A DNA stretch of 64,000 nucleotides from a virus: IMG/VR virus record IMGVR_UViG_3300025108_004281, positions 1 through 64,000 of that record; one strand, 5' to 3'. A program made the position numbers and the translations under genes. The notes below the pieces were generated by a model, which saw nothing but the letters and a program-made list of their open reading frames with translations, did not search any database and was not told the origin of the DNA. Shown here one piece after another: positions 19,667-60,329 of this stretch. Position 1 is the first letter of the stretch. The number at the start of each line of letters is the position of its first letter.

Positions 19667-20554
19667 TTATTTTCCTATTGCATTTCCGTATATATGAACG
19701 TGGACTCTGCTTGTATAATTGTATCCACGTTGTATAGCCTCATCGGCAATGGTGGCTTCAGTTTGTACTAAGCCTTCAAATGTGCCGCCAACTCCCATAA
19801 TCCATACAGGGAAATTACAGCCAGCATCTCTAAACAGTTTTACATTGTCTTCCACTTCTTGCCAACTTGCTTCTGAGCCATTAACAACAAACTTCAATTG
19901 TCCTTTAGGACTTACTTCAGCATATCTACCAATTACTTCTGGCTGTATTGCTTTCTTAGGCTTCTCACCAGCAGTACTCCATAACTTAGGCGATAAACTC
20001 CAATACCATTCTCTGCCTATCCAACCTGTATAATTACGATGTACCCAATCAGCAAATTCATCTGTGATAGGCTTGGTGCCGTTAGTTTCCACAGTAACGT
20101 TCATTGGCATATTATCTCTGCGTTTGAACTCTTCTATAATGTTCATCATGCCAGGCTGTGTGTTTTTAAGCATTGGCTCGCCGCCTGTAAAGACCATGTG
20201 TGCGTTTTGTTGTGTAACTGGGTGTACAAACTTACCGTGCGGTAGAAGTGCTGTAAGTTCGTCTACGGCTTCATCTACAGTTTTATCAGTGATAAGATGT
20301 TTATATTTCTTACTCCAAGTGTAACTGCTATCACAACCTTTTTCAAACACAGGTAAATCAAATACATTAGTGATGTCTGTGATATCTAATTTTTCATATG
20401 GTAAATCATATGTGCTAGGGTCTGTTGGGTCTTTTTGTCCAAAGCCATTACATTGTAAATTGCATAGGAAGAATCTCATCCACAGACTAGGGATACCTAC
20501 ATACTGGCCTTCCCCTTGTGCTGAATAAAATGTTTCGCTATACTTTAATGTCAT
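19667..20554 (-). CDS. queE: 7-carboxy-7-deazaguanine synthase QueE (radical SAM)
   Basis: ETFYSAQGEG, R...CNLQC...GCDS, FTGGEP, VETNGT, SLSPK, RVH. Confidence 0.9.
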   Translation of the reverse strand: MTLKYSETFYSAQGEGQYVGIPSLWMRFFLCNLQCNGFGQKDPTDPSTYDLPYEKLDITDITNVFDLPVFEKGCDSSYTWSKKYKHLITDKTVDEAVDELTALLPHGKFVHPVTQQNAHMVFTGGEPMLKNTQPGMMNIIEEFKRRDNMPMNVTVETNGTKPITDEFADWVHRNYTGWIGREWYWSLSPKLWSTAGEKPKKAIQPEVIGRYAEVSPKGQLKFVVNGSEASWQEVEDNVKLFRDAGCNFPVWIMGVGGTFEGLVQTEATIADEAIQRGYNYTSRVHVHIYGNAIGK

Positions 20555-21243
20555 TACTTATCGCAAGAATATTGTTGTTGTAGTTTAATGTTATCCATAA
20601 ACTCTTTCTTTGTACCTGCGTCATTTTTAAATGCGCCTTTTAATACAGTTGTTTGTGTAAGACTACTATGTGCCTTAACACCTCTGTTCTCTACGCAACC
20701 ATGTGTGGCTTGTACATACACACCTAAGTGCTCGGCCCCTGTTGCTTTTTGAATCTCTCTAACAATGTCGTTAGCAAGTTCTTCTTGTAATGTACCTCTA
20801 GCCGCACACCATTGTGCAATCCTAGTGTACTTACTCAAACCAATTAGTTTGTCTGCGGCAATGATACCAATGTATGCCACACCTCTAACAATCTGATGGT
20901 GATGTGAACACATACTTGTGAGTTCACTTCTTACAACCAGCATACCTTCATATCTATCTTCGCTGTCGTTAGGGAAAGCAGTTGCATTAGGCATGTTTTC
21001 GTATCTACCAGCCATTAGTTCATTAATATACATTTTAGCAAGACGCCTACCAGTATCATTACTGTTAGGATCATTTTCAGTATCAATAACCAAGCCTTGT
21101 AATACATCCTCGAACTTAACCGCAAGTTCGTCAATCAGTTGTTGCTTCTCTCCGTCTTCAATAAAGTCAGAGATATTGTCGCCGGCCCAATGTCTTTTGC
21201 CTGCCTCAACTAATCTTTGTTTAATTTTTTTACTTGTTTCCAT
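20554..21243 (-). CDS. folE: GTP cyclohydrolase I
   Basis: SMCSHH, IGLSK..R, LQEEL, HGCVENRG, EF. Confidence 0.95.
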   Translation of the reverse strand: METSKKIKQRLVEAGKRHWAGDNISDFIEDGEKQQLIDELAVKFEDVLQGLVIDTENDPNSNDTGRRLAKMYINELMAGRYENMPNATAFPNDSEDRYEGMLVVRSELTSMCSHHHQIVRGVAYIGIIAADKLIGLSKYTRIAQWCAARGTLQEELANDIVREIQKATGAEHLGVYVQATHGCVENRGVKAHSSLTQTTVLKGAFKNDAGTKKEFMDNIKLQQQYSCDK

Positions 21244-21442: not shown

Positions 21443-21611
21443 TGTCTTCCCTTAAGATACCATTTTCCCAATTCTCTGCAACATCCTGTGCATAGTGTAT
21501 CGACTTATCTCTAACGTCAATTTTACCAAAAGCATCACCGTCTTTTAATAGATGTACTATGTAACCAGTACCATCTACATTTACTATTTCTGCTGTTCTC
21601 ATCTCCACCAC
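21408..21611 (-). CDS. Hypothetical protein
   Basis: KSIHYAQDVAENW..G phage-type motif. Confidence 0.55.
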   Translation of the reverse strand: MVEMRTAEIVNVDGTGYIVHLLKDGDAFGKIDVRDKSIHYAQDVAENWENGILREDNEYIKKFEKSS

Positions 21612-22087
21612 TCCTCATACGGAAACACTATCCAACGTTCTTGATCGGGTAATACATTGTTAGCAGTAAATTCAACTTTGTCAAAACTGCTAGACTCTTT
21701 ATCAAACAATGTAGCATATCTAATATCCTGATGTGCATAAGCCATCTTATTAGTTGTGCTATCTACATAGTCTGTGATTACCTTATCAATACCTTGTAAT
21801 GTTGTTCCAGTATCATTAATATCGTCAACAACTAAAACTGTTTTATCATTGTATTTAGATAAAATATGTCTTAGAGTCTCCGAATCTTCGATATGTGCGT
21901 CTCTAGTTTGCCATCTAAATGCTTCAAATGGCACTTCATAGTAATGACTCATCATTACACCAAAGGCATACGCACCTCTTCCAGGACCAATTATAACTTC
22001 AGGCTTGTAACTTTCATGTGCCATTTCTCGCACAATAATTCTACAATCTCTGTTTAAGTCGTCCCAACTATAATATAGTTTATCCAT
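21599..22087 (-). CDS. Purine phosphoribosyltransferase (Gpt/Hpt-like)
   Basis: PRPP loop VVDDINDTGTT, RG, WIVFPYE. Confidence 0.85.
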   Translation of the reverse strand: MDKLYYSWDDLNRDCRIIVREMAHESYKPEVIIGPGRGAYAFGVMMSHYYEVPFEAFRWQTRDAHIEDSETLRHILSKYNDKTVLVVDDINDTGTTLQGIDKVITDYVDSTTNKMAYAHQDIRYATLFDKESSSFDKVEFTANNVLPDQERWIVFPYEEWWR

Positions 22088-22124: not shown

Positions 22125-22696
22125 TATCTTTCAAAGTCGTTTTCTAATAAAACAAAGTCCACTTTATCAAAATCATCTAAGTTTATTTTAGATGCCTCCT
22201 CTACAATATCTCTGCCAGTAAATTCTAAAAACAATTTAAGTTCTTTATAAAATCCAGCATCTAAAACAGGATTTAACACTTCGCTATCTCCTGATATATT
22301 ATATGTGTCGTCAAGAATCTTGCTACTAAGGTTTAAAACAACACCAAATGTCATTTTAAGACCTTCTGATAGCATATCATCAAAATCAGTTATTTTTTTA
22401 TATTTAAAGATATATCTGTTTAACATTCTTAAGTAGAATTCTGCAGATATTTCGTCAAGTTGTACTGATATTTTATTATCATCAAATTCAACTGCTTTAA
22501 ACACAGACAAATGACTTTGATCAAAATCTACATTATTACAAAAGAAATGTATAACATCTATTATTTCTTTATCAGTTACAGGAAATTTCTTTTTGATTAA
22601 ACTTAAATCATCTCCTTTGCCTATTGCACCGACAACTGACATAACAGGTGTACCTGTTCTATTAATAACGTTTACTGATTTACGTCTTCCTATCAT
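22124..22696 (-). CDS. Protein with DUF433-like N-terminus
   Basis: GTPV..V...I..G.....I...FP.T..EI...I.F. Confidence 0.45.
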   Translation of the reverse strand: MIGRRKSVNVINRTGTPVMSVVGAIGKGDDLSLIKKKFPVTDKEIIDVIHFFCNNVDFDQSHLSVFKAVEFDDNKISVQLDEISAEFYLRMLNRYIFKYKKITDFDDMLSEGLKMTFGVVLNLSSKILDDTYNISGDSEVLNPVLDAGFYKELKLFLEFTGRDIVEEASKINLDDFDKVDFVLLENDFER

Positions 22697-23688
22697 TTAT
22701 TTTTAATTACCTTGTTTTTATTGTCTACCCAAAACTTAGAATGTGCAAACATATCATCTAATGAATATGTTGGTTCCCAATCTAATAAAGTTTTGGCTTT
22801 AGATATATCTCCACATAAGTACGATGGATCTCCTGCTCTTCTAGGACCTACTTCATATTTTAAACTTTTTCCAACAACGTTTTGTGCTGAAATTATTAAA
22901 TCATGAATACTAAATCCTGTACCAGAGCCTAAGTTTACAATACCACTTTCACCGTCATTGCTTAAATGCTCTACTGCTTTTAGTTTAGCATTTGCTATGT
23001 CTTGTATATGACAGTAATCTCTAATGCAAGTACCGTCTTTAGTATCGTAATCATCGCCACAAATATTAAATACCTCGTCATTTGTAATTTTATCAATAAT
23101 GATAGGCATTACATGAGTTGCTGGTTCTTGTGTATAACCATTTTTACCTTCTGGGTCTGCACCAGCGGCATTAAAATATCTTGTACTAATATAATTTAAC
23201 CCATATGCTTTGCTGTAATCTTCTAACATAAGTTCTGTCATGTGCTTACTCATTGCATACGGACTCATTGGTGTTGGTGTAAGAGTTTCTGCAAATGGTT
23301 CTCTGCTATCTCTTTCACCATATACACTACTAGAACCGCTAAAGATAAAGTTTTTAACTCCTGCTTTAACACACATATCTAATAGTGCTTGAGTACCCGA
23401 CACATTATTTTTATAATACTTGCCAGGGTCAATAATACTATCAGGAACAACATGACTGGCCGCTAAATGTATAACCGCTTGTGGTTTAAACATTTCGAGT
23501 ATACCTGCTGTAGTTGTAGCCTGAAATTCATGTGGAAATAAAGTAGCACCTTCTGGTAGTGTCCACTTTCTGCTCGTGTTAGAATCTATAACAATTACGT
23601 CATATCCAGCACCTGCAAAAGTTTTACTTACCTGTGCACCAATAAAACCAAGTCCGCCTGTAATAACTACTGTTGGTTTATCACTCAT
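22693..23688 (-). CDS. galE: UDP-glucose 4-epimerase
   Basis: TGGLGFIG, IHLAA, YAMSK, RYFNAAGA, DGTCIRDY, RRAGDP. Confidence 0.92.
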   Translation of the reverse strand: MSDKPTVVITGGLGFIGAQVSKTFAGAGYDVIVIDSNTSRKWTLPEGATLFPHEFQATTTAGILEMFKPQAVIHLAASHVVPDSIIDPGKYYKNNVSGTQALLDMCVKAGVKNFIFSGSSSVYGERDSREPFAETLTPTPMSPYAMSKHMTELMLEDYSKAYGLNYISTRYFNAAGADPEGKNGYTQEPATHVMPIIIDKITNDEVFNICGDDYDTKDGTCIRDYCHIQDIANAKLKAVEHLSNDGESGIVNLGSGTGFSIHDLIISAQNVVGKSLKYEVGPRRAGDPSYLCGDISKAKTLLDWEPTYSLDDMFAHSKFWVDNKNKVIKNK

Positions 23689-23845
23689 CTTTATTTTCCT
23701 CCTTTGGATCTAAAAGTCCGCCCCAATCCTCAACTTCATCAACAACATCTGTAAGAGATCCTGCTGGTTTAGATTTAGTAGGTTGGACTACTGTCTCCTT
23801 GTTTCCTTTCTTTTCAGTGAAAGGAATACGTTTAATGTTAGGCAT
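23681..23845 (-). CDS. Small hypothetical protein
   Basis: Likely start MPNIKR at 23845; fills gap. Confidence 0.4.
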   Translation of the reverse strand: MPNIKRIPFTEKKGNKETVVQPTKSKPAGSLTDVVDEVEDWGGLLDPKEENKDE

Positions 23846-24020
23846 TATTTTTTGCGTCTTGAATCTCACCTCTTCTAACTTTCGCTAGTTTAGTAATTTC
23901 CATTAATGCCTTCCTTGCTCTTGTTGCCGATGCTTTTACGCCTTGGCCTTCTTTAAATTTTTCGTTTTCACTTACATACTCTTCGAAAAGTGCTTTAATT
24001 TTTAAATGTGTCTCTGTCAT
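23838..24020 (-). CDS. Histone H1-like (Hc1-type) small basic protein
   Basis: KF..G.KASATRARKAL.E..KL.K..R.EIQ. Confidence 0.7.
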   Translation of the reverse strand: MTETHLKIKALFEEYVSENEKFKEGQGVKASATRARKALMEITKLAKVRRGEIQDAKNNA

Positions 24021-24029
24021 AATTATCTC

Positions 24030-24620
24030 CTATGTGTTTTTAAATTGTACAGATTTAATTAAATCGTAATCGGCTCTATAAGCCTGTCTGACTACTGATT
24101 TATTAACGTCATTAACAATGTCTATTGATTGCATCAAACGTTTTGTTGCGTCAATGTTGAAACCATATTCATCATTGATTTGATTATAAATATTTTTGTT
24201 ATAATAAAAATAATCTATGATAGGGTTGGCATTATATTTTTTTATAATATCAAACATATCAATTAAGAAACTTTTTTGTGGCTTAAAATGTGCATCGTTA
24301 GATTCTAAATAAAATCCTTCATCACTAAAATTAAAAGTAACATAGTTTGTATGAGGTTCTACTTCTCTCCAACCTAAGTACATATTAATAGTACTGATAA
24401 ATCGTTCTACTGGATCTCTTAATATCACAATAAACCTACTTGGGCATTTTTCTTCTTCCCATAATGTAATTCTTTTCCAATCGTTATTTGTTTTTTCAAA
24501 ATCTCTAATTACACTTGTAGCACATTTAGGTACTAACAAGAATGCAATGTCCTCTTTTTTGTTGTATACACAATCACCTGGCATACAATTTGTATATTTG
24601 TTATCAATTGATGTTTCCAT
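24030..24620 (-). CDS. Sulfotransferase family 2 protein
   Basis: PKCATS, LRDPVERFIS, HFKPQ, Y..DY.L. Confidence 0.7.
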   Translation of the reverse strand: METSIDNKYTNCMPGDCVYNKKEDIAFLLVPKCATSVIRDFEKTNNDWKRITLWEEEKCPSRFIVILRDPVERFISTINMYLGWREVEPHTNYVTFNFSDEGFYLESNDAHFKPQKSFLIDMFDIIKKYNANPIIDYFYYNKNIYNQINDEYGFNIDATKRLMQSIDIVNDVNKSVVRQAYRADYDLIKSVQFKNT

Positions 24621-25179
24621 TGTCTACCTTATTAACGAACTTAACAGAGTCAATTAACTCATAGTCTTTTACATAAACATCTTTAATAATGTCAATATCA
24701 ACACTTTTTACTATTTTACTAAATCGATTTATATAATTTTGTTCCATATTTAAATTATAAAAATTATTTAAATCATCAATTATATTATTGTTTAACCAAA
24801 AGAAATCAATTTTACTTTTGTCCAAACCCTCAATAAAAGTATTTTGCGAAAAAAAGTGTGCATCGTTGCTTTTAAATATACCGTATTTGTTATCCTCTTT
24901 CCTAATGTCTACATAATTAGATGTAATCTTTCTAGGGTGCAAATACATATTTACAGCACTTATAAATCGTTCTACTGGATCTCTTAATATTACACAAAAT
25001 TTATCTATAGTAAGATCTTTTAAAATTATTTCGGTTTTATCAGTAATTGGTTTTAATGCACGTTTTATTGACGAAGAAGCATTCTTTGGTAAATGTAAAA
25101 TACCAAGATTACTTTTTTCTATATAAGCACCGCTGTATAGCGGATGTATAGAACCATTAATACCAATTACATTGTTCAC
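24604..25179 (-). CDS. Sulfotransferase family 2 protein (tandem paralogue)
   Basis: PKNASS, LRDPVERFIS, DAHF..Q, Y..DY.L. Confidence 0.7.
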   Translation of the reverse strand: MNNVIGINGSIHPLYSGAYIEKSNLGILHLPKNASSSIKRALKPITDKTEIILKDLTIDKFCVILRDPVERFISAVNMYLHPRKITSNYVDIRKEDNKYGIFKSNDAHFFSQNTFIEGLDKSKIDFFWLNNNIIDDLNNFYNLNMEQNYINRFSKIVKSVDIDIIKDVYVKDYELIDSVKFVNKVDNGNIN

Positions 25180-25607
25180 TTTAAACTCTCAAATACATCA
25201 ACTAAGTCTTGATCTGGGCCTTCCTCATGATCCTCAACAAAGTATTCCATTTCGCAACCGTTCTCGTTATCCTCGGCTACCGAAATCTTTATGTAGCGAT
25301 CAGGATACATTGCTTGTATCTCACTCGCTAAATCGTCTGCAATCATTTCACAACTCTTGTAATCTAATTGCAATGTGTCATGTGCATACAGTCTTTCCAT
25401 CCATCTCTTGAACTGTATAAATTCTACGTCTCTGTCATCATGAAACACTTCAAGCCATACCTTAAAGTGAAAGATGTGTCTGTGTGGATATCCTAAAAAG
25501 GATACATCGTCCCAATCGCCTGTTGCTAAATTAGGATCTTCCAAGGCGGCAGGGTACTTGTGAATACCCTCTTTACTGAATGTTACCCAAATACTTCTCA
25601 CTACCAA
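25176..25607 (-). CDS. queD: QueD-like 6-carboxytetrahydropterin synthase (T-fold)
   Basis: EGIH...HRHIFH metal ligands, DRDVEF, SCEMIA, V.ED.ENG; context with folE/queE. Start may be GTG 25601. Confidence 0.7.
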   Translation of the reverse strand: MVVRSIWVTFSKEGIHKYPAALEDPNLATGDWDDVSFLGYPHRHIFHFKVWLEVFHDDRDVEFIQFKRWMERLYAHDTLQLDYKSCEMIADDLASEIQAMYPDRYIKISVAEDNENGCEMEYFVEDHEEGPDQDLVDVFESLK

Positions 25608-25783
25608 CCTCCGTCAATTGTTTCCATTACTTCATTCATATGACCTAACAGTTGTGTGATAGGTTCATCGTAGTCACCAATCTCATAGTCAACGTCATCT
25701 TGTTCTTTGAACATTGCTTTTATTTGATCACCATACTGAACAATCTGTTCTAGTTGTTCTCTCATCTCATCTGATATTGCCAT
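25601..25783 (-). CDS. Small acidic hypothetical protein
   Basis: Start MAISDE with GGAGG RBS. Confidence 0.5.
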   Translation of the reverse strand: MAISDEMREQLEQIVQYGDQIKAMFKEQDDVDYEIGDYDEPITQLLGHMNEVMETIDGGW

Positions 25784-26193
25784 TACGCCTCCTTGCCTGG
25801 ATCCCACATAACTAGGTTTTTCTTTTTCAACCTATTAGTTATTATGGTATATCTATTTTGCTCTTCCTTCCATTCCTTTAACCATTTGTGTCCATCACGT
25901 TCTGCATCAACAAAGATTGCATTAGTAAATGCTAATGGTAGTAAAATAGAAATATGTATAATAATACTAGTAACAGTATTATAATCAAAGAATCCTAAGT
26001 AGTTTGCGGCTAAGAAGCCAAAGAACACACTCCATACAGTAAACAATACCAACATAAAGTATGTTTGTAAACTTGGGTCTTTAATTACTCTTAATGGATT
26101 GTATCTCACATCCATTACACGTCTCCAGCCTTTTACAAGTCCCATTACAGTTCTTCTAAATAAACTAGGTCTCTTTACACTAGGTTCTATCAT
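25783..26193 (-). CDS. Membrane protein (2 TM)
   Basis: VMDVRYNPL...two hydrophobic segments. Confidence 0.6.
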   Translation of the reverse strand: MIEPSVKRPSLFRRTVMGLVKGWRRVMDVRYNPLRVIKDPSLQTYFMLVLFTVWSVFFGFLAANYLGFFDYNTVTSIIIHISILLPLAFTNAIFVDAERDGHKWLKEWKEEQNRYTIITNRLKKKNLVMWDPGKEA

Positions 26194-26202
26194 TTCATTC
26201 TC

Positions 26203-26298
26203 CTATTCTATGTGATTTCTCACAAACTCTTTTATTACATGTAATCCTACTGATGCCCATGTAATTACTATTAAACTCCATATCAGTATCTCAATCAT
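26203..26298 (-). CDS. Small membrane peptide, 31 aa
   Basis: Manual: MIEILIWSLIVITWASVGLHVIKEFVRNHIE. Confidence 0.45.
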   Translation of the reverse strand: MIEILIWSLIVITWASVGLHVIKEFVRNHIE

Positions 26299-26515
26299 CT
26301 ACTTCAGGATCATATGTTTCTTGGCTATCGTCTTTATGCGGGTTACCGCCTTCGTACCAACTGCCCTCTTTTTCTTTATCTTTCCAACCGCTTTCAATGT
26401 GTAATCCTGCTGGGCGACCTTGTTGTTTGATCACTTCTAACTCACGGAGTATTTTAGCAACACCTTCGTCTATTGCTTTTTTAATCTGTGTATTAGTAGG
26501 ATGACCCATTACCAC
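26291..26515 (-). CDS. Hypothetical protein
   Basis: ORF track. Confidence 0.45.
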   Translation of the reverse strand: MVMGHPTNTQIKKAIDEGVAKILRELEVIKQQGRPAGLHIESGWKDKEKEGSWYEGGNPHKDDSQETYDPEVDD

Positions 26516-27171
26516 TTAACTCCTATTGTAACACTTAAAACATTATTGTCAATCGGATCTTCTGTGTAAGTGTTACTAAAACCTAATGATACCTTTTCAT
26601 TTAAACTATAATTAATTGCTGTTTCATTACGCAAATATGTATCTGTGCCTGTTTCATTTAACAACTTGTTAGTAATATTAAGACTGTCATTTAGTTTATA
26701 AAATACCCATAAACTGTTTCTAAGTATTGCTTCGTCTACTTCATCTGTGGTTAAGTATGCAACTGAAGCCTCATGACTTATTTTCCAATTATCATTTCTA
26801 AAAACTTTTATACCAATGCCGCCACCAGTAACTATTCTATCACCTGACAATCTCAATTTATCTCTATCATAACTTGAAACACTAAATGCATAATACTTAG
26901 GTGTAATATCTTTATTTGCTTTGCCTATAATACTAAACTTATCCATTTTGACTACGTCTTCTTGTTCCTTGTAAACATAGTCTGTTTCTACAACATAGTC
27001 AATAAGTGGATTATCCCATTCATGGTCTAGACTTAACTTTAATGTAGTTGTGTCGCTATTAATTTGGGTCCATCCAAATTTAGCATTGCCTGTTGCATTA
27101 GCAGGCATAGTAATTAATACTAATCCTACTATAACTAAAATAAACAATACTGCTTTTTTAATTCTGCTCAT
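26509..27171 (-). CDS. Outer-membrane beta-barrel, DUF481/YdiY-like
   Basis: Signal peptide, alternating beta-strand pattern, Y.RD...GGG.G, terminal aromatic W (VTIGVKW). Confidence 0.7.
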   Translation of the reverse strand: MSRIKKAVLFILVIVGLVLITMPANATGNAKFGWTQINSDTTTLKLSLDHEWDNPLIDYVVETDYVYKEQEDVVKMDKFSIIGKANKDITPKYYAFSVSSYDRDKLRLSGDRIVTGGGIGIKVFRNDNWKISHEASVAYLTTDEVDEAILRNSLWVFYKLNDSLNITNKLLNETGTDTYLRNETAINYSLNEKVSLGFSNTYTEDPIDNNVLSVTIGVKW

Positions 27172-27334
27172 CGTTCTCCTCTATTGGATTATCGTAATAA
27201 TCATGTGTACCTGCTCTATACCTTGCTTTCCTTTCAGAAACAAGTACACTACTCATATAGGCAAAGTATGCCGCTACTATAACAAACACTATACCTATAA
27301 AAAAATTAACAACTGTCATTAATGCTTCAATCAT
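27158..27334 (-). CDS. Small membrane protein, 58 aa
   Basis: Manual: MIEALMTVVNFFIGIVFVIVAAYFAYMSS...AGTHDYYDNPI. Confidence 0.5.
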   Translation of the reverse strand: MIEALMTVVNFFIGIVFVIVAAYFAYMSSVLVSERKARYRAGTHDYYDNPIEENDEQN

Positions 27335-28553
27335 ATTTTGCCTTTGCTACCTTTCTTCTGTAATGCTGTCTGTCTCTTTGTTGTTCAAGACCTAATCCAG
27401 AAAGTACTTTTAATGTTCTTTCGATAGTGCCATTCTGATAGTCACTAATCTTACCGATATTGTATTCGCTTAGGTTATCTGTTTTAATGTCATCAAACAT
27501 ATTAGACAGTTTGCTTACACAATCTTCCATACTCCATGGAACGTATAAGTGTCTACCGTTGTTAGCAAATACTTCTGGGAAACTTCTATATGCTGGATAT
27601 AGTGTAAGTGTACCAAATGTATCGGCTTCACTAACAGTATTGCTTACCCAATCTTGCAATGCACAATTGAATAACACTTTACTGTCTGCTAACAAATTAT
27701 AGTAATCGTTTTTCTTTAAGCCTGTGTAAATTTTAAAGTTTGCAGTATCACCTTCTTGTAATGCTAATGCTCTATCAACATACTCTTGATCTGAACTTTT
27801 AAGTTCTGGGTGTCCACAAAAGATTGCAAACTCAACAGTAGGATCTATTTTGTAATACTCCTCTGCTAAGTCCATATAAAAGTGTGGTTGCTTCTCATCG
27901 TCCCAACGTGCCGCAAAGCCTACTCTGTTACTTCTTTCATTAAGTGGCTTAGGATTAGGAACACGTTCTTGCACTTCTTCCTTACCAAACGGTAAGCCTG
28001 TTACATATATAGGCTTCTTAAATCCTGCTGTTCTTAAGTGTGCTACAAATTCTTCACTTGCTACAATAATACCTGTAACAAACTCATCTACCATTTGTTC
28101 ATATCTACGCATCCAGTCAAACATACCTTCTCTAATAAGGAAGTCATCTGGGTCTGTTGTTTGTGCTAAGAACCTTAGGAATACTTTAGGTCTGTATTCT
28201 TCTGGAGACTGGTCCATTATGTAAGGTAAACATTCTAAGCCTGGTGTAAACATATCTTCATAGAAGATTACGTCATCGCTTGTGATTTCACCGTTCTTCA
28301 TTTTCTGTACTAAGTTCATTGTTTGACTTAGACTGTAATAACTTCTTCCATGTGCATCAAGTACACTACCTGTAACGATTGCTTTACTGTTATCAAGTTC
28401 TTCACCTTTGATTATTTCATAATCAATATCATGCTTTTTAAACTCTCGCTCGTTCCAGTCTTGTAATTGTAATGTGTATCTTGCTTCATAAGACTCAAGA
28501 CCCATGTAGAACAATTTACGCATTTTCATTTTGTACAAATTACCTTCCTCCAT
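27327..28553 (-). CDS. Glycosyltransferase, GT-B (GT4-like)
   Basis: FAARWDDEKQP, YYNLLADSK, LQDWVSNTVSEA, PAYRSFPE. Confidence 0.75.
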   Translation of the reverse strand: MEEGNLYKMKMRKLFYMGLESYEARYTLQLQDWNEREFKKHDIDYEIIKGEELDNSKAIVTGSVLDAHGRSYYSLSQTMNLVQKMKNGEITSDDVIFYEDMFTPGLECLPYIMDQSPEEYRPKVFLRFLAQTTDPDDFLIREGMFDWMRRYEQMVDEFVTGIIVASEEFVAHLRTAGFKKPIYVTGLPFGKEEVQERVPNPKPLNERSNRVGFAARWDDEKQPHFYMDLAEEYYKIDPTVEFAIFCGHPELKSSDQEYVDRALALQEGDTANFKIYTGLKKNDYYNLLADSKVLFNCALQDWVSNTVSEADTFGTLTLYPAYRSFPEVFANNGRHLYVPWSMEDCVSKLSNMFDDIKTDNLSEYNIGKISDYQNGTIERTLKVLSGLGLEQQRDRQHYRRKVAKAKYD

Positions 28554-28573: not shown

Positions 28574-28604
28574 ATTATATCATTTTTTGTGGCCAATGTC
28601 AACC
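28574..28604 (-). promoter_or_regulatory. TTGACA-17-TATAAT promoter
   Basis: -35 28597-28602, -10 28574-28579. Confidence 0.8.
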
Positions 28605-29192
28605 GTTTTTCCTTTTAAATGATGTATCGCCATCTGCGTACTTGTGATTAATTTTGCTGTGATGTTGTTCATCTGCTCTAACTTTTTTAATCAAATCACT
28701 TAACTTAGCATCATCCTTCATTTTATAATATTTGATAGCAAGTTTAGGTGCAGGTACATTTGGCACTTCACCACTTTCAACTAATTCTAAATAACTAGTA
28801 TAACTTCTTACTGCCTCTTCTTCAAAGTAAGCAATCATTCTGTGTGCTGTTTTGTAATCTATTATATACAATACAGAGTAAAATAACATAAAAATAAATT
28901 GAGCAAACAAAACCAAATACCTTTCAAACCAATTAGGTTGTGCTATCTCAATAAAGAACATTAAGTGCATTCTTTCATTCTCTGCTTCTGCTAACATCTC
29001 TCTTATGTCAGGCCCATACCCAACTTTCATCTTACGCAGGCTTTTCATGTGTAACCACATACCAGCAACCATGCCAGGAACACCTGCTACTGTTTCTAAT
29101 ACAACTGCTCTATGACCATAACGTTTAGCAAAGAATGTATCTGCTATAAAGCGAAAAAACTTTGTCATGCTCATTGCTAACTTGTCTCGCAT
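28599..29192 (-). CDS. aox: Alternative oxidase (ubiquinol oxidase)
   Basis: LETVAGVPGMV, EAENERMHL, FEEEAV.SY, RADEQHH di-iron motifs. Confidence 0.93.
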   Translation of the reverse strand: MRDKLAMSMTKFFRFIADTFFAKRYGHRAVVLETVAGVPGMVAGMWLHMKSLRKMKVGYGPDIREMLAEAENERMHLMFFIEIAQPNWFERYLVLFAQFIFMLFYSVLYIIDYKTAHRMIAYFEEEAVRSYTSYLELVESGEVPNVPAPKLAIKYYKMKDDAKLSDLIKKVRADEQHHSKINHKYADGDTSFKRKNG

Positions 29193-29698: not shown

Positions 29699-29895
29699 TA
29701 GTAACTAGTGTACCCCCATTTAATTAACTTATCCTGAAAGTCTACACCTTCTTCAAGGTCTACAAGTCTAACAGGCATTGTTTTACCGTCTTTAGTTTCT
29801 ACTATTTCCATTGTTGCACCATTCTCCAACACATGAAATTGTACGTCATGCCCTTCGAATGTGTATGTACCACTGTATGCTTTATTCTCCGTCAT
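29698..29895 (-). CDS. Hypothetical protein
   Basis: ORF track, GGAG RBS. Confidence 0.5.
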   Translation of the reverse strand: MTENKAYSGTYTFEGHDVQFHVLENGATMEIVETKDGKTMPVRLVDLEEGVDFQDKLIKWGYTSY

Positions 29896-31423
29896 AATCG
29901 GCCCTCATTATATCTTCTTGCATGTCTGCTTCACTGTCACCTGACTCGTATTCTTCTGTTTCGAATAACGAACCAAATGTAGTTTGCTCAGCACTACCGT
30001 CTGAGAAACTAATCTCTTTTAAAAATTCTTTGTTATCTTCTAACATTTGTCTTGCATTGGTGTTATTTGGATCTAACACTTCTTCTGCAAAACTATCGAA
30101 CATCAAAATAGTACCTGGTACATAAGGAGAAGTTTCATTGCTCACACTACTGCCTTTTACCTTCTTCCAGTTCTTCCAATGTGTAGGTGTTCTGTGTTTT
30201 TCCATATCAGCAAGTCTGTTTGCTTCTTGCGTTGCTGTAATGTGATTGTAAACACTATGACCCATATAAAGTGCATAACTTAGTGTGTCCCAACTAGTTG
30301 TAGTCTCTTTACCATTCCTATTAACATCACCATGTCCTAAAACACAGATGTCACCAACTGTAAGTCTACTCATTATAGGGGAATGTGCAAAAGGCATAGG
30401 CATCTTTGATCCTTTGAGATCTTTGTTATCGAATGCTCTATCCATAAAGTATCCGAATCGCTTGGCTCTAAACTCATTATGTGTGTAGGTTTGGCCATAT
30501 GCTGTATTAACAAAAGGTGATGCCGCATCAAATGATAGTGTAATATTAGGATTGTCATATTTTCTCAACTGTCTTTGGATACTAGTAAGGTGACATGCCC
30601 AATTAAGGCGTCCAGTACCCAAGAAGTGTATCCAATCCTTACCTTCAAGTAAACCATCTTCTCTAAGATCCAATAGTCTACTTAACACACTATACATGTG
30701 TTTCATATTGATACCAGCGAATGCGTAACCTTCTAAGGTTCTATTCTCATCACCGTATGCTTCTTGCACAAAACTTTTATTGGAAAAATGCTTTACAGCA
30801 TCATACCATTGTTTGCTATTTTCTTCGTTACTACCACTTAACACATTTAAGAACTTGGTAGCACCTGGTGTTCTGTTCCTCATAAAATAGTCTAAATTAA
30901 GTAGACTAATATCTAGTGTGTCTTGAAATTCTGTAAGTCCTGTTCTTTCACTTAGTTTACCAACTGCCGCAAAAGCAGGAACATCTAATGTCATACTCCA
31001 GTCTGCTGTATGCTCTAACCACGTAAGTATCTTATTACAAAACTCTGTTCTAGCAGGGTCATTGGGATCTTTTGCATTACTCCAATCCATTTTAATAACA
31101 CCAGTAGCAAGTTGGAAACCACCTGAGTCTCCTAGTATCATTGTTTTGCTACGGTCTCTGCCTTGTATCATTGGTTCACGTTCGTCACTTTTTACAGGAT
31201 CTAAGTGTGCGTGTCCACCGGAGTATAGACCCCATGGATAATGATAATAACTATTCTCAGGATCAAGGAAGTTCATGCCTTGTGTGCCTTTTTCAAAGCC
31301 TTCAGGACATCTCCATTCACTTGGATTAGCATTCATCTTTTGTAATTGTGTTACATAGAAGCCACTAATAGCAGGCAGGTAAACTGCCCAATCCTGGTGC
31401 TTCTTTCCTAAGTCTTCTGTCAT
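29882..31423 (-). CDS. dpdA: DpdA/TGT-like DNA guanine transglycosylase
   Basis: TGT-fold motifs LGDSGGFQ, MTLDVP, IHFLG, SFDAASP; co-occurs with folE/queD/queE. Confidence 0.75.
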   Translation of the reverse strand: MTEDLGKKHQDWAVYLPAISGFYVTQLQKMNANPSEWRCPEGFEKGTQGMNFLDPENSYYHYPWGLYSGGHAHLDPVKSDEREPMIQGRDRSKTMILGDSGGFQLATGVIKMDWSNAKDPNDPARTEFCNKILTWLEHTADWSMTLDVPAFAAVGKLSERTGLTEFQDTLDISLLNLDYFMRNRTPGATKFLNVLSGSNEENSKQWYDAVKHFSNKSFVQEAYGDENRTLEGYAFAGINMKHMYSVLSRLLDLREDGLLEGKDWIHFLGTGRLNWACHLTSIQRQLRKYDNPNITLSFDAASPFVNTAYGQTYTHNEFRAKRFGYFMDRAFDNKDLKGSKMPMPFAHSPIMSRLTVGDICVLGHGDVNRNGKETTTSWDTLSYALYMGHSVYNHITATQEANRLADMEKHRTPTHWKNWKKVKGSSVSNETSPYVPGTILMFDSFAEEVLDPNNTNARQMLEDNKEFLKEISFSDGSAEQTTFGSLFETEEYESGDSEADMQEDIMRADYDGE

Positions 31424-31425
31424 GT

Positions 31426-32169
31426 TTAACTCTTAGCAGGTAATATGTATTTGTATTCGCCTAAACCACTGTCAATAACAATTTGCATTGCACCTGCATT
31501 AGCAAAACTAACAGTACAATTAGCACTATCGCTTAGTCTTAGAATGCTTAGTGCTTTATCAATTTCCCATTTCCAGTTACCGGATAGTTCGCCATCGACA
31601 TTGTTGTTGATTGGTAATTTACCTTTATCACCGGCACCTTCGCCAATGCTAAAATATAATGCACCATCTTCTGTACTTGGAGAGAACACAGGTTCAAAAC
31701 CACCTAACACACCATTGAAGTAACCTAAGTCTTTTAAGTTCTTCTGTGATGGCACAATAGTAACGTCCCATGGGATCTCTTTCATTGTAACAGATTTTAG
31801 TTGCTGATTAATTACATCTGCTAACATAAATCTGTAACTACCAGTGTGTCCTTCTGCACTTTTAAAACTAATTTGTACAGGTATGTCATCTCCGTTTCTG
31901 CTCTGTGTTTCTACACTTACTTCAGAACCTTCGTCTACAAAACCTGGAAATTTTAAATATCCATCTAGTACACTCATTCTGCTAAGACCTACTGTTTGAT
32001 CTACAAAGTCTGCTACAGGATTATGTAGTTTACCTTGCAGGATAACAGTTTTGTCTGCATCCATGGCTTCAATTGTAGTAGACGACTCATCGCCACTAAT
32101 CTTAACCATTTCAATAAAACCTAAGGCGTGAGTATGCCTTAGTATGTCTTTAAATATATCTTTTATCAT
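31426..32169 (-). CDS. Sliding clamp (gp45/PCNA-like)
   Basis: 247 aa, directly downstream of polymerase, terminal GAMQI..DSGL..Y.YILPA. Confidence 0.7.
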   Translation of the reverse strand: MIKDIFKDILRHTHALGFIEMVKISGDESSTTIEAMDADKTVILQGKLHNPVADFVDQTVGLSRMSVLDGYLKFPGFVDEGSEVSVETQSRNGDDIPVQISFKSAEGHTGSYRFMLADVINQQLKSVTMKEIPWDVTIVPSQKNLKDLGYFNGVLGGFEPVFSPSTEDGALYFSIGEGAGDKGKLPINNNVDGELSGNWKWEIDKALSILRLSDSANCTVSFANAGAMQIVIDSGLGEYKYILPAKS

Positions 32170-32233
32170 ATGTTGTCACCTCTTATATTAAAGTTATTAT
32201 TTAGGCCTTTACACCTAAAAAGTTTATAAATCC

Positions 32234-32258
32234 TGGCCGTTTGATACCTAACGACCAA
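32234..32258 (-). other. Hairpin immediately after polymerase stop
   Basis: UUGGUCGUU-AGGUAUCA-AACGGCCAG on minus strand. Confidence 0.4.
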
Positions 32259-32259
32259 G

Positions 32260-34965
32260 TTAATCATCAAAATCAAATAAACTATGGAATGTATTACTAG
32301 TATCTGTCTGCGACAAATCCCATTTTAGTACATTCAATAAGTTTTCTACTTTCTTATCAACTACTGCCTCTTCCATTGCATCGTCATCAAAAGGCAGTTG
32401 TTTAAACCAATCTGGTATATGCATTTCATCTGTTGGGTATGCAATACTTGTATAACCCATTGCATTACTCTTTAACCTGCACACAATTACTTTCATACCA
32501 TCTGTTATTTGCATACTGTATTGATCACTGTTTGCTTTTAACATGTTATTCCAGTTAATACTTGCTCTAACATGCCCAGGAATCATTACTTTCTTTTCGT
32601 CTTTGAGTTTTTCTAACTTGTAAAGACTAGCACTCTTGTTCATACTGAATGCTTTATTGTATGCTTCTGTGTAATATGTTAAGTTGTTTACCCTTTTAGG
32701 CATACCTTTCTTCCAAGAGTCCATTGCTTTGAACTCCTTCTTAAACTCTCTTACACTTGCAAGTACTTTTGTTTCACCGTCACCGTTTAGTGTCTGCCCT
32801 AGTATGTCACTTAAGAAGTCTTGCACAAACTCAGGTGTGTCTGATCTCTTAAGATCTAGGCCCATTACTTTAAGTTTTCCGCCTTCTGGTTGCCAACCTT
32901 CTAAGTCTAATACATTGATAGCATACCTTTTCTTAGTAATAAAGATACCTGCTCTACCAACAACTTCTCTACCTGCTTTAAGTATATTACCTTGACTAGT
33001 AGAAATGTTAAAGGCCTGTTTAGCAAATGAAGGGAAAGAGTCACTAACTGTATCTGAAATATTATCATATAATGCAATAGCACTATCCATGTCTAACTCA
33101 ATATCTTGCTTTTTACTAATTTCATGAGCACTAAAATATACAGAGTCAGTATCACCATAAACAATAGTATCGCCTGTGTGATCATATTCGCCAGTCAACA
33201 TTTTGTTTGTTTCTGCTCCCATGTGTCTAGTAATTGCTCTACCAGTGAGTGTTGTACTTTGTCCTATTCTATGGTCAAAGAACCTACTACCTGGATTACA
33301 AATAGCACCATATGTACTGTTAAGTAAAATTTTTCTAACTAACTGTCTCTTATCCCAGAATGCTATGTCCTCTGGTGTTGTTGCTTGTTTCTTTTTAGCC
33401 TGTAATTCTTGTCTCTCTGAATACCATTTCTCTAATAGACCGGGTATAATACCTTGTACGTCTGTTCTATATACAGTACCATTTGCACTAATGCACCATG
33501 GCTCCTCGCTATTAAACAGCATGTTATACACGTCAGCACCTTTAACACTAATTTCTCTTTTGTCTTCTAAGTCTAATATAAGTGGCTTGTCAACATCTTT
33601 AGCCATAACCATTTCATATTCATTAGTACCAAACTTACCTGCCCATGCATCTGCAAATGATTTCTTTTCTATTTGCATTTTTTCTGTAATTTCTTTATCT
33701 GTGTACTCTTGCCTTAGTTGTCCTACAATAGTTTCAGGAGCCATATTCAATGCTCTAATGACACTAGGATACAGACTGTTTATGTCCATCGACCCTACCC
33801 ATTCATGCATACCTTTCTTAGGAAATGCCACATAGGCACCTGCTACTGTATGCCCCCATGGGTTATCTGAATCTTTAGTTCTATTTCTATCAGGAACAAC
33901 CATGCCACGTCTGTGTGCTTCATTAACTATTGCTTGGTCAATAGTCTGTACCGCACCCATTGTTACTGGAAGTAATACTGTATTTTGATGTGCAATCTCA
34001 CTGGCAAGACTTATAAACTGCAACTTATCATCTAGTTTCTTAAGTAGCATTGTGTCTTGTATGTTATACTCTAAGAACAGTTCAAAGTCGTGATTGTATA
34101 GTCTGTCTAAACTACCATCATACACAACTTTCTTTTCACCTACTTCCATTTCACCAATGTAGTCTAGTCTGTAACTATGACGCTCTTCATAGTTATACTT
34201 TCTGTACAGTTGCATATAGTCTAAGTGTACACGACCTACTAAGTCATATGTTTGTGTTTCTCTACCGTGATTAACATATTCTCTTTTAATCACGTTTTTG
34301 TCTAGTAAACACAGACGTCTTGTTTCGCTTTTACCTAACACTTTGATAATTCTGTTTACAGTATAAGGAATATCATAACCTTCACTGTTCCAACCACTCA
34401 ATATATCTGCATCATCTATGAGACTAAGAAAAGCATCTAACATTGCTTTTTCATTACCAAACAATATAGTGTCGCCTACATTATCTGCTATCTTTTGTGC
34501 TTGTTCCCAATTAAGTGTCTTAGGCGGAACTGCTAAACAAACAATCTTATCCATCCAGTCTAAGTAAACACTGATACTGGTAATAGGCATAAATGCATCT
34601 TCAGGAGAACTATAACCTCTATCTGGATCAAAGTCTACCTCGATATCAAAAAAGCATTTGTGTAAGTCTGGTGCATCCATGCCCAAGTAATGATCTGCTA
34701 ATACTCTGTTTACAGGTTTTAGATCACTTTCATATGTGCGTTTGTTTTGATACAATGCAACATTACGTTTAAAGTCTTTCCAATTGTTTGCTGTAATCTT
34801 ACTTACTGGGTCGCCATACACACTATGCTGTTTGCCTTTAGGATCATCTACATAAAAGTAGTATCGCATAGGGTGATCAATAATCTTGCGTTCGCCCTCT
34901 TTAGTACGTTCAACGACTCTTACTATGCCTTTGTTCTGTTCAAAAACTGCGTCAACGTAACTCAT
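32260..34965 (-). CDS. DNA polymerase family B (gp43-like)
   Basis: Exo FDIE, GWNSEGYD, YNIQD; Pol DINSLYPS, KILLNSTYG, YGDTDS, KKRY. Confidence 0.97.
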   Translation of the reverse strand: MSYVDAVFEQNKGIVRVVERTKEGERKIIDHPMRYYFYVDDPKGKQHSVYGDPVSKITANNWKDFKRNVALYQNKRTYESDLKPVNRVLADHYLGMDAPDLHKCFFDIEVDFDPDRGYSSPEDAFMPITSISVYLDWMDKIVCLAVPPKTLNWEQAQKIADNVGDTILFGNEKAMLDAFLSLIDDADILSGWNSEGYDIPYTVNRIIKVLGKSETRRLCLLDKNVIKREYVNHGRETQTYDLVGRVHLDYMQLYRKYNYEERHSYRLDYIGEMEVGEKKVVYDGSLDRLYNHDFELFLEYNIQDTMLLKKLDDKLQFISLASEIAHQNTVLLPVTMGAVQTIDQAIVNEAHRRGMVVPDRNRTKDSDNPWGHTVAGAYVAFPKKGMHEWVGSMDINSLYPSVIRALNMAPETIVGQLRQEYTDKEITEKMQIEKKSFADAWAGKFGTNEYEMVMAKDVDKPLILDLEDKREISVKGADVYNMLFNSEEPWCISANGTVYRTDVQGIIPGLLEKWYSERQELQAKKKQATTPEDIAFWDKRQLVRKILLNSTYGAICNPGSRFFDHRIGQSTTLTGRAITRHMGAETNKMLTGEYDHTGDTIVYGDTDSVYFSAHEISKKQDIELDMDSAIALYDNISDTVSDSFPSFAKQAFNISTSQGNILKAGREVVGRAGIFITKKRYAINVLDLEGWQPEGGKLKVMGLDLKRSDTPEFVQDFLSDILGQTLNGDGETKVLASVREFKKEFKAMDSWKKGMPKRVNNLTYYTEAYNKAFSMNKSASLYKLEKLKDEKKVMIPGHVRASINWNNMLKANSDQYSMQITDGMKVIVCRLKSNAMGYTSIAYPTDEMHIPDWFKQLPFDDDAMEEAVVDKKVENLLNVLKWDLSQTDTSNTFHSLFDFDD

Positions 34966-48805: not shown

Positions 48806-49354
48806 TTATAATTCCTCTGTGGTAACAACTTTATATATTTCGCTATTACCTACTGTTAATTGTAATTTAGCAACATCTTTTTTATTGGTCATGTAAACTG
48901 TTGATTTCCAACCATCACCAGTGTGTGTTACTTTTGCATCCATACTAAGTTTGCTAACTTTTTTAACCCAATCAATATTTGGCCAATACTTGTATGCTAC
49001 ATATCTATATTTATTAAAAAACAGTTGTCTTCTAAGTATTTGATTATTTGATGTAATAACATCATATTCTTCTTGCGAACGTATACCTTGTACACTAATT
49101 ATACTATCTTTAAATTTTCTAATAAATTTTTTAGCAACTTTGCTATCTGAAAAATACACTGAATAATTTTTGTGCCATGCAAATTTCATTGTGTCCCAGC
49201 AGTACTGATTTTGAAATTTGTATATTTCTTCTAATACCATAGGATCGTGTATAAGCCAATTGCCTTTTACTTCTGCTTTGATATGATACTTATTCCACCA
49301 TAATTTAAATGATGGCCGGATATCTATACCGGAAACAGTATTGCCTAAATTCAT
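48806..49354 (-). CDS. Hypothetical protein
   Basis: ORF track; internal duplication KLWWNKY / QLFFNKY. Confidence 0.55.
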   Translation of the reverse strand: MNLGNTVSGIDIRPSFKLWWNKYHIKAEVKGNWLIHDPMVLEEIYKFQNQYCWDTMKFAWHKNYSVYFSDSKVAKKFIRKFKDSIISVQGIRSQEEYDVITSNNQILRRQLFFNKYRYVAYKYWPNIDWVKKVSKLSMDAKVTHTGDGWKSTVYMTNKKDVAKLQLTVGNSEIYKVVTTEEL

Positions 49355-59402: not shown

Positions 59403-60329
59403 TTAACCCATAGCATTCATCTCTAGTTCTACTAGAGTTGCACTAAGGTTAATCTCTGGGTCTGCACAAGACACACTCTTCACCATACCGTCTCTTATGA
59501 TAACAATGCTTTGGTCTTGCTTCAGTGGCTCTGCTCCCCATAAATCTAAGTTCCTGTATAAAAACTTAAACACATCTTCGTATTCTTCGGGCCTTGCTTG
59601 GTCACAAATAAGTGTTCTTGCTTCTTTGTATTTGCCTGCTTTGAATAACTCTACCATAGATAGCATCCAGTCGCTTTGTGCGGCATCGCCATCTTGAGGA
59701 CTTTGTAATACACCGTCGACTACATTTTGTTGTACCAAGTTGATGCTCTTACGAAGATCTGGATAACTTGCTTGTACATAAGTGTCAAGGGTTTCTAAAT
59801 CTATCTGTACGCCCTCTTCAACACAGATAGTTGCTATCCTGGCTGTAAATTCATTTATGTCTAGTTTCTCAATATGGAAACCTTGGGACCTAGAATGAAG
59901 AGCCGGGATAATTCTTTGTGGGTAGTTACAGGTTAATATGAACCTAGCAGTTGTATGATACATTTCCATCATACCACGTAACGCCGCCTGCCCATTAGGA
60001 GTAATGTAATCTGCTTCATCTAGCAATACATACTTAAACTCTCCAAACGGCATAGTACTCACAAAGTTTGTGATTCTATCTCTAATAACGTCAATACCAT
60101 TTTCGTTACTAGCATTAATTTCAAGTATATCAAATTGATCTACTTCTAAACTGTGTAGCAATACCTTTGCTAATGTAGTTTTACCTGTACCTGGAGCACC
60201 ACTAAACAGTAAGTGTGGCAATGCACCATCATTAATCCAGCCTTCTATCTGCTTACGTTGATTGATATCTCTAAATACATATCCATCTACTGTGTTAGGT
60301 CTGTATTTTTCTACCCATAATTCTTTCAT
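59403..60329 (-). CDS. Clamp loader ATPase subunit (gp44/RFC-small-like)
   Basis: WVEKYRP, GAPGTGKT, NASNE, LDEAD, Q.ALR, CNY, SRS, DLRK. Confidence 0.93.
   Translation of the reverse strand: MKELWVEKYRPNTVDGYVFRDINQRKQIEGWINDGALPHLLFSGAPGTGKTTLAKVLLHSLEVDQFDILEINASNENGIDVIRDRITNFVSTMPFGEFKYVLLDEADYITPNGQAALRGMMEMYHTTARFILTCNYPQRIIPALHSRSQGFHIEKLDINEFTARIATICVEEGVQIDLETLDTYVQASYPDLRKSINLVQQNVVDGVLQSPQDGDAAQSDWMLSMVELFKAGKYKEARTLICDQARPEEYEDVFKFLYRNLDLWGAEPLKQDQSIVIIRDGMVKSVSCADPEINLSATLVELEMNAMG

Follow-up and report, generated by a model that had tools for sequence, protein, structure and literature searches.

In the 64,000 nucleotides of viral DNA analysed here (the window; IMG/VR record IMGVR_UViG_3300025108_004281, positions 1 to 64,000), three consecutive minus-strand genes encode a family B DNA polymerase (PolB), a PCNA-like sliding clamp and a 513-aa enzyme with the predicted fold of tRNA-guanine transglycosylases (TGT). 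The predicted disordered tail of the enzyme carries a short motif of the same kind as the clamp-interaction peptide at the end of PolB. Comparison of related phages revealed that both peptides change together with the presumed peptide pocket of the clamp, and this covariation, read from aligned sequences, constitutes the new evidence presented here. The clamp-docking-type peptide on a putative DNA transglycosylase is a real feature and a conserved one. We assign a probability of roughly 0.68 to the full mechanism, in which the transglycosylase would be docked on the clamp via its PolB-like peptide and exchange bases on newly made duplex DNA. The proposal of the initial annotation that the base-exchange enzyme rides the phage clamp would thereby be supported. 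The features concerned are located as follows.

32260..34965, minus strand: PolB, 901 aa, family B DNA polymerase of the T4/RB69 gp43 type
32263..32292, minus strand: PolB C-terminal peptide TFHSLFDFDD, clamp-interaction type (residues 892-901)
31426..32169, minus strand: sliding-clamp gene, 247 aa, PCNA-like by fold; no Pfam match; phrog_12062 ('unknown function')
31768..31770, minus strand: codon of clamp W134, the residue that ends the loop linking the two domains (modelled as coil, residues 125-135)
31489..31491, minus strand: codon of clamp A227, which opens the penultimate beta strand
29882..31423, minus strand: transglycosylase gene, 513 aa; TGT superfamily, DpdA-like, unnamed viral subfamily
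31127-31129, 30983-30985 and 30527-30529, minus strand: codons of enzyme D99, D147 and D299, aligned to the catalytic Asp residues of TGT
29885..29995, minus strand: enzyme C-terminal tail, predicted disordered (residues 477-513; low model confidence)
29963..29980, minus strand: enzyme tail motif TFGSLF, a polymerase-like putative clamp-docking peptide (residues 482-487)
29903..29929, minus strand: acidic helix in the enzyme tail (residues 499-507; helix in the model, low confidence)
59403..60329, minus strand: clamp loader subunit, phrog_168 'clamp loader of DNA polymerase' (E 1.1e-76)
19667..21243, minus strand: 7-deazaguanine precursor genes, QueE-like radical SAM (19667-20554) and FolE (20554-21243)

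The three genes are tightly arranged. The enzyme start lies 2 nt past the clamp stop (junction TAA-AC-ATG), no convincing promoter or terminator was found between the PolB, clamp and enzyme genes, and the sole near-consensus promoter-like site (35246-35219) is located upstream of all three. Of the roughly 150 viral loci whose flanks are long enough, nearly all keep the order PolB-clamp-enzyme. In these respects the gene coordinates agree with the initial annotation, which had described the clamp gene as flanked by the other two and the enzyme gene as beginning 2 nt after the clamp stop. Its positions for the motifs, 32275-32292 in PolB (TFHSLF, residues 892-897) and 29963-29980 in the enzyme, were matched by translation and codon coordinates. 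Its statement that the shared motif is C-terminal is true for PolB; the enzyme motif is internal to the tail.

The C-terminus of PolB reads ...SNTFHSLFDFDD. All 38 distinct PolB tails of relatives have the form [LF]F, polar or acidic, aromatic or hydrophobic, 2-5 residues before the end. The position of this peptide is that of T4 gp43 892-SLDFLF-897, which occupies a gp45 pocket made up of the linker loop and the interdomain gap (PMC12746103), in agreement with the statement of the initial annotation that the gp43 tail binds gp45. The enzyme tail reads ...EQTTFGSLFETEE, with 26 mostly acidic residues from the F of the motif to the stop. It follows a catalytic core that extends from residue 1 to about 470, and the predicted local distance difference test score (pLDDT) falls below 50 at residues 477-482 and 484-513, indicative of disorder. 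Scored with a position-specific matrix derived from PolB C-termini alone, TFGSLF reached 13.9 bits and was the top non-PolB match among 28,077 sequence windows of the proteome of the 92-kb contig. When only the C-terminal tails of its 114 genes were compared, the enzyme motif came second to PolB, and the next tail reached 8.0 bits.

To assess conservation, 117 non-redundant sets of polymerase, clamp and enzyme were taken from viral contigs, and their motifs were scored with a 6-position score and simple patterns. At least 6 bits were reached by 83 of the 117 enzyme tails (shuffled tails: mean 12.5, maximum 23), and a strict pattern ([LM]F or FF) was matched in 103. The alignment of homologues called for in the initial annotation thus revealed a conserved motif. 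Among 62 long family representatives obtained by 50% clustering, 16 scored at least 8 bits compared with 1.3 in shuffles, and the motif is retained down to about 30% core identity. For instance, the phage Phosso has ...TTFNDLFTF in PolB and ...IVEGLF in the enzyme, and Vibrio phage 2.275.O has ...NNTDLFDW and ...NNNDLFGW, respectively. Only about half of the residues identical between PolB and enzyme peptides share their codon, which indicates selection on the peptide rather than copied DNA. Gene conversion between the 3' ends of the two genes was ruled out by this codon comparison.

In most homologues the motif is followed by an amphipathic acidic helix of the D-D-D-E-L-R-A-L-E-E, DDREDxELDKLE or D-M-N-D-E-K-L-x-x-L-E type, seen for example in the relatives at loci L001, L037, L055, L061 and L100-L160. 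The helix is missing where the motif forms the extreme C-terminus, i.e. in the FFEF clade introduced below and in the 2.275.O lineage; certain lineages conserve this helix more strongly than the LF motif itself. No other carrier of the motif was found in the 92-kb contig or among the open reading frames (ORFs) flanking 63 loci. The complete PA5oct genome offers one small ORF as a further motif candidate (MK797984.1 1838-2137, locus L163). It encodes 99 aa, ends in ...HWETLFDTDEYV and scores 9.1 bits, equal to the PA5oct enzyme tail; on the basis of its sequence, this protein is a candidate for a further small clamp client, comparable in size to T4 gp33.

Evidence bearing on a shared binding site came from the clamps aligned from the same loci, which comprised 22 genomes with FF-type and 95 with LF-type PolB tails. 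In one large clade the PolB motif is FF, not LF, at positions -1 and 0 (...FFEF). The enzyme motif is likewise FF in 21 of the 22 FF-type genomes, often with an identical C-terminus. Clamp position 134 is F or Y in all 22 FF-type genomes and W in 93 of the 95 LF-type genomes. At position 227, L or V is present in 22/22 FF-type clamps; the LF-type clamps have A or V in 95/95 and L in 0/95. The complete combination of PolB LF, enzyme LF and clamp W134/A227 was found 76 times, that of FF, FF and F134/L227 21 times. W134 lies within the linker loop, which forms the pocket in T4 (PMC12746103).

The same switch was found a second time at locus L109, where PolB ends in ...GKFFSFD, the enzyme has ...TKFFEDE and the clamp carries F134 and L227. 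On the enzyme tree, L109 sits deep among LF-type relatives, and its 29 nearest relatives all have W134 and A227; in 73 further loci around it, position 134 is W and position 227 is A, or C in two. Its clamp shares 69% identity with the LF neighbours and 36% with the FF clade, its PolB 82% and 60%, respectively. Thus, the change from LF to FF was accompanied by a change in the clamp in at least two separate lineages. Another locus, L085, was considered as a third independent switch and rejected, as its clamp and PolB both fall in the FF clade.

The identity of the polymerase is supported by Pfam DNA_pol_B (E 1.7e-38), phrog_262 (E 6e-203) and colinearity with RB69 gp43 (1clq; E 8e-65, residues 32-855 versus 35-859). 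The clamp sequence had no match in Pfam or the PDB and was identified by fold comparison only. Its AlphaFold model (pLDDT 92.7) adopts a two-domain PCNA-like fold and matched PCNA in Foldseek (E 5.9e-11, TM ~0.7) and VIA-align (Z 18.5, root mean square deviation 3.1 Å, 227 of 247 residues aligned). In addition, the same genome encodes a cognate loader (phrog_168), and the gp43-type PolB gene is located directly upstream. Judging from the model, the 247-aa protein is a PCNA-like sliding clamp, presumably a ring-shaped trimer around DNA, in line with the initial assignment of the middle gene.

The clamp homologues of PA5oct (EST35_0314; L001 4921-5667) and Phosso (L002 5202-5924) bear the annotations 'structural protein (ESI-MS/MS)' and 'virion structural protein', respectively. 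Both are PCNA-like sliding clamps by fold, and the virion labels look wrong or the result of carry-over in virion preparations. The PA5oct polymerase gene is interrupted by a Hef-like homing endonuclease gene (L001 1-4840). In Phosso the polymerase (L071/L072) is a single 1013-aa frame whose match is broken between query residues 525 and 534, suggesting the presence of an insert. Several IMG/VR relatives possess polymerases of about 985 aa with a single-piece match only from about residue 525 onward.

The 513-aa enzyme belongs to a family of 819 representative clusters, mostly viral, and had no matches in Pfam, PHROG or NCBIfam. All top Foldseek matches of its model (pLDDT 91.6) were TGT (E 1.5e-6), and the DNA transglycosylase DpdA (7ui4) appeared at rank 34. 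VIA-align superimposed 305 residues on TGT (Z 19.2, root mean square deviation 4.3 Å). In a profile comparison with E. coli TGT by hhalign (88% probability, E 2.9e-6), D99, D147 and D299 fell on D89, D143 and D264, and the GDSGGFQ stretch was aligned as well. Across 63 family members D99 and D299 do not vary, and D147 hardly does. The curated TGT models (PF01702, TIGR00449) did not match the enzyme. One of the 63 members hits PF01702 (E 0.006), and two short members match TgtA (E 2.7e-5 and 0.001), far below the cut-offs. The predicted fold and the catalytic residues nevertheless identify the protein as a strongly diverged member of the TGT superfamily, and the initial description as TGT/DpdA-like was upheld on the same grounds.

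Membership in DpdA3 was considered and rejected. The only link was a partial, weak profile match to CGPG_00065 of Cellulophaga phage phiST (hhalign, 70% probability over 83 columns only), a tail-less protein of 259 aa. The tblastn search with the enzyme reached neither phiST nor Campylobacter phages even at E 10, and a viral-contig scan with the distant family representative P0044 gave no match. Distant TGT-like proteins of about 21% identity are encoded by the 200-kb phages GR7B (L069 4656-6272) and Peetri (L070 4932-6302). The Vibrio phage GR7B protein has ...NKTLFGKEEED and the Pseudomonas phage Peetri protein ...KASSLFASV, each followed by a long Lys-rich rather than acidic tail. A T4-type PolB was not found in GR7B and Peetri.

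The genomic context points to 7-deazaguanine. FolE (Pfam GTP_cyclohydroI, E 6.3e-38) and a QueE-like protein with weak Fer4_12 and Radical_SAM matches are encoded 9-12 kb downstream of the enzyme. The PA5oct homologue, EST35_0316, lies near queE, and that of Vibrio phage 2.275.O adjoins queF, a queC-like gene and folE. In every studied phage with 7-deazaguanine DNA, insertion is carried out by a TGT-like DpdA (PMC10516641). PA5oct DNA is resistant to restriction enzymes with G-containing sites and behaves as G-modified, and a DpdA was not named for this phage (PMC12191111). The enzyme is most likely the DNA transglycosylase (DpdA-like) of the phage, with DNA as its probable substrate.

Further genes surround this set. 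A phosphoribosyltransferase gene (21599-22087, minus strand; Pfam Pribosyltran, E 1.4e-11) is located about 350 nt upstream of FolE, and its product could convert a free 7-deazapurine base to the nucleotide on a route parallel to base exchange. The region between the enzyme and FolE (22693-28553) contains genes for a GalE-type epimerase and a GT1-like glycosyltransferase as well as two ORFs with weak similarity to sulfotransferases, a set that would fit additional decoration of the inserted base or of a different target. An alternative oxidase is encoded three genes downstream of the transglycosylase (28599-29192; Pfam AOX, E 8.7e-69).

According to the proposed mechanism, the enzyme would remove guanine from phage DNA and insert in its place a 7-deazaguanine derivative supplied by the FolE/QueE pathway. 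Its disordered tail would present T-F-x-S-L-F and the acidic residues after it, a peptide that matches in kind the one with which PolB ends. On the PCNA-like trimeric clamp encoded by the phage itself, the enzyme peptide would occupy the hydrophobic pocket that also receives the PolB peptide and is formed by the linker loop and the interdomain gap. A clamp with three pockets might stay on the freshly made duplex and thus hold the transglycosylase beside or behind the polymerase. With such tethering, base exchange could become faster and more complete. We consider it reasonably probable that, in at least 597 viral contigs, mostly of uncultured large phages, base exchange is physically coupled to replication by a transglycosylase hung on the clamp, and that a specificity rule applies, with L or F at ligand position -1 corresponding to W134/A227 or F134/L227 in the clamp.

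The shared peptide might instead bind another common partner, i.e. a single-strand-binding protein, a helicase, the clamp loader or the host beta clamp. Hydrophobic-acidic C-terminal tips are known to serve several replisome hubs. 'SLF' resembles the QL[SD]LF type of bacterial beta-clamp motif, and the GR7B and Peetri proteins carry TLFG or SSLFA even though no T4-type PolB was found there. This explanation is nevertheless unlikely. The phage possesses its own clamp and loader, and its PolB is of the type of gp43, whose tail is a clamp ligand (PMC12746103). Moreover, in two lineages the peptides changed along with two clamp residues, one of which belongs to the linker loop, a pattern that a host protein or any other partner would not explain.

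That the enzyme acts on host or phage tRNA, with a tail that is unrelated to catalysis or serves localisation only, is still less probable. Its best structural matches are tRNA enzymes, and there is no named DpdA model for its family. Against this stand the replisome-type docking peptide and the fixed location of the gene beside PolB and the clamp in about 150 loci. In addition, the studied 7-deazaguanine phages all rely on a TGT-like DpdA for insertion (PMC10516641), and the related cultured phage PA5oct has G-modified DNA with no other DpdA candidate reported (PMC12191111).

Alternatively, the peptide could be a generic acidic tail or a shared regulatory or turnover signal, e.g. a degron for the phage Lon-like protease. 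Exposed hydrophobic tails can be degrons, and the window does encode such an ATP-dependent protease upstream of the transglycosylase (49351-51528; phrog_4871, E 1.9e-240). A signal of this type would account neither for the correlated clamp substitutions nor for the fact that the PolB tail is homologous to a clamp ligand of solved structure, and the peptide occurs on no other protein of the contig, which makes this a very improbable explanation. The motif is short, with five fixed residues, yet chance resemblance or recent DNA copying between the two gene ends has practically no standing, given its rank in the proteome, its persistence to about 30% core identity, shuffles far below the observed counts and differing codons at identical residues, and the conservation data already contradict both. 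All four alternatives explain the clamp substitutions poorly.

Several observations weigh against a clamp-docked transglycosylase. The second switch rests on a single contig (L109 = L179). By column alone, the overlap between L109-specific and FF-clade-specific clamp positions is not significant (hypergeometric P 0.16); it is telling only because the same residues appear, which are otherwise almost never seen. Three loci are discordant: L030 combines PolB FF with enzyme LF and clamp Y/V, and L047 and L244 combine PolB LF with enzyme FF and clamp W/A. Fourteen of the 117 enzyme tails fall outside the strict pattern, most of them with a conservative variant such as IF, VF, HF, NF or MW at this site, and one (L051) is devoid of any similar motif. 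The clamp-binding peptides known from T4 occupy the terminus of their proteins, but in the enzyme of the window 26 residues separate the motif from the C-terminus. Neither the ligase nor the 5'-3' exonuclease encoded on the contig carries the motif. The CxCxxC...H zinc motif of TGT is absent from the enzyme, whose Cys residues are scattered (39, 129, 277, 360), and from the family consensus. Finally, mass spectrometry led to the annotation of the clamp homologue in PA5oct as a virion protein.

Modification of phage DNA with 7-deazaguanine is thought to be post-replicative via DpdA, and how, in some phages, a large fraction or even all guanines are replaced fast enough, before host nucleases act, is still open (PMC10516641). 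A clamp-riding transglycosylase, if true, would be a concrete and testable answer to the question of fast and dense replacement. It would also imply that networks of clamp clients can be read from sequence alone. Ready-made mutant pairs are available in the concerted substitutions of the clamp and its two putative ligands. Our analysis further names a candidate for the missing transglycosylase of PA5oct-like therapeutic jumbo phages, whose DNA is G-modified and for which no DpdA was reported (PMC12191111). Full-text literature searches revealed no paper that ties DpdA or 7-deazaguanine insertion to a sliding clamp, and the clamp is unmentioned in the 2023 survey of DpdA subfamilies. The remark in the initial annotation that a clamp-tethered DpdA was not known to have been described is in accordance with this result.

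Among known systems, the closest parallel to the polymerase side is the T4/RB69 gp45 clamp with its clients gp43 (892-SLDFLF-897; RB69 peptide complex PDB 1b8h), gp33 and gp55. As in T4, clamp, loader and polymerase are all phage-encoded, and the flexible C-terminal tail of a gp43-type polymerase bears a short peptide of hydrophobic and aromatic residues; by fold the clamp described here ranks nearest to PCNA. Unlike in T4, the second putative client is a base-exchange enzyme rather than a polymerase or transcription factor, and its motif, as known here from sequence, is internal to the tail with an acidic helix next to it.

With DpdA (bDpdA, PDB 7ui4; phage DpdA1-DpdA4; PMC10516641) the enzyme shares the TGT fold, the conserved catalytic Asp residues, 7-deazaguanine gene neighbours and the expected guanine exchange in DNA. 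It differs in having no CxCxxC zinc motif, is unrecognised by Pfam and NCBIfam and fits no described subfamily; compared with DpdA3 (259 aa), it is about twice as long, with an additional helical extension and the docking tail. Likewise, bacterial TGT and archaeal ArcTGT resemble it in the TIM barrel (Z 18-19), the DSGGFQ stretch and the equivalents of E. coli D89/D143/D264, in contrast to its missing zinc motif, its similarity below the family thresholds, its replication-gene context, its clamp-type tail and its probable DNA substrate.

PCNA-tethered DNMT1, a maintenance methyltransferase, and UNG2, a uracil glycosylase, are base-flipping enzymes brought to new DNA by a short disordered clamp-binding peptide. 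They differ from the phage enzyme in fold, in catalysing methyl transfer or excision instead of base exchange, in using a PIP box and in belonging to another domain of life. The phage protein resembles them in being a base-altering enzyme with a short putative clamp peptide in a disordered region and, if the proposed mechanism is true, would be their prokaryotic-virus counterpart.

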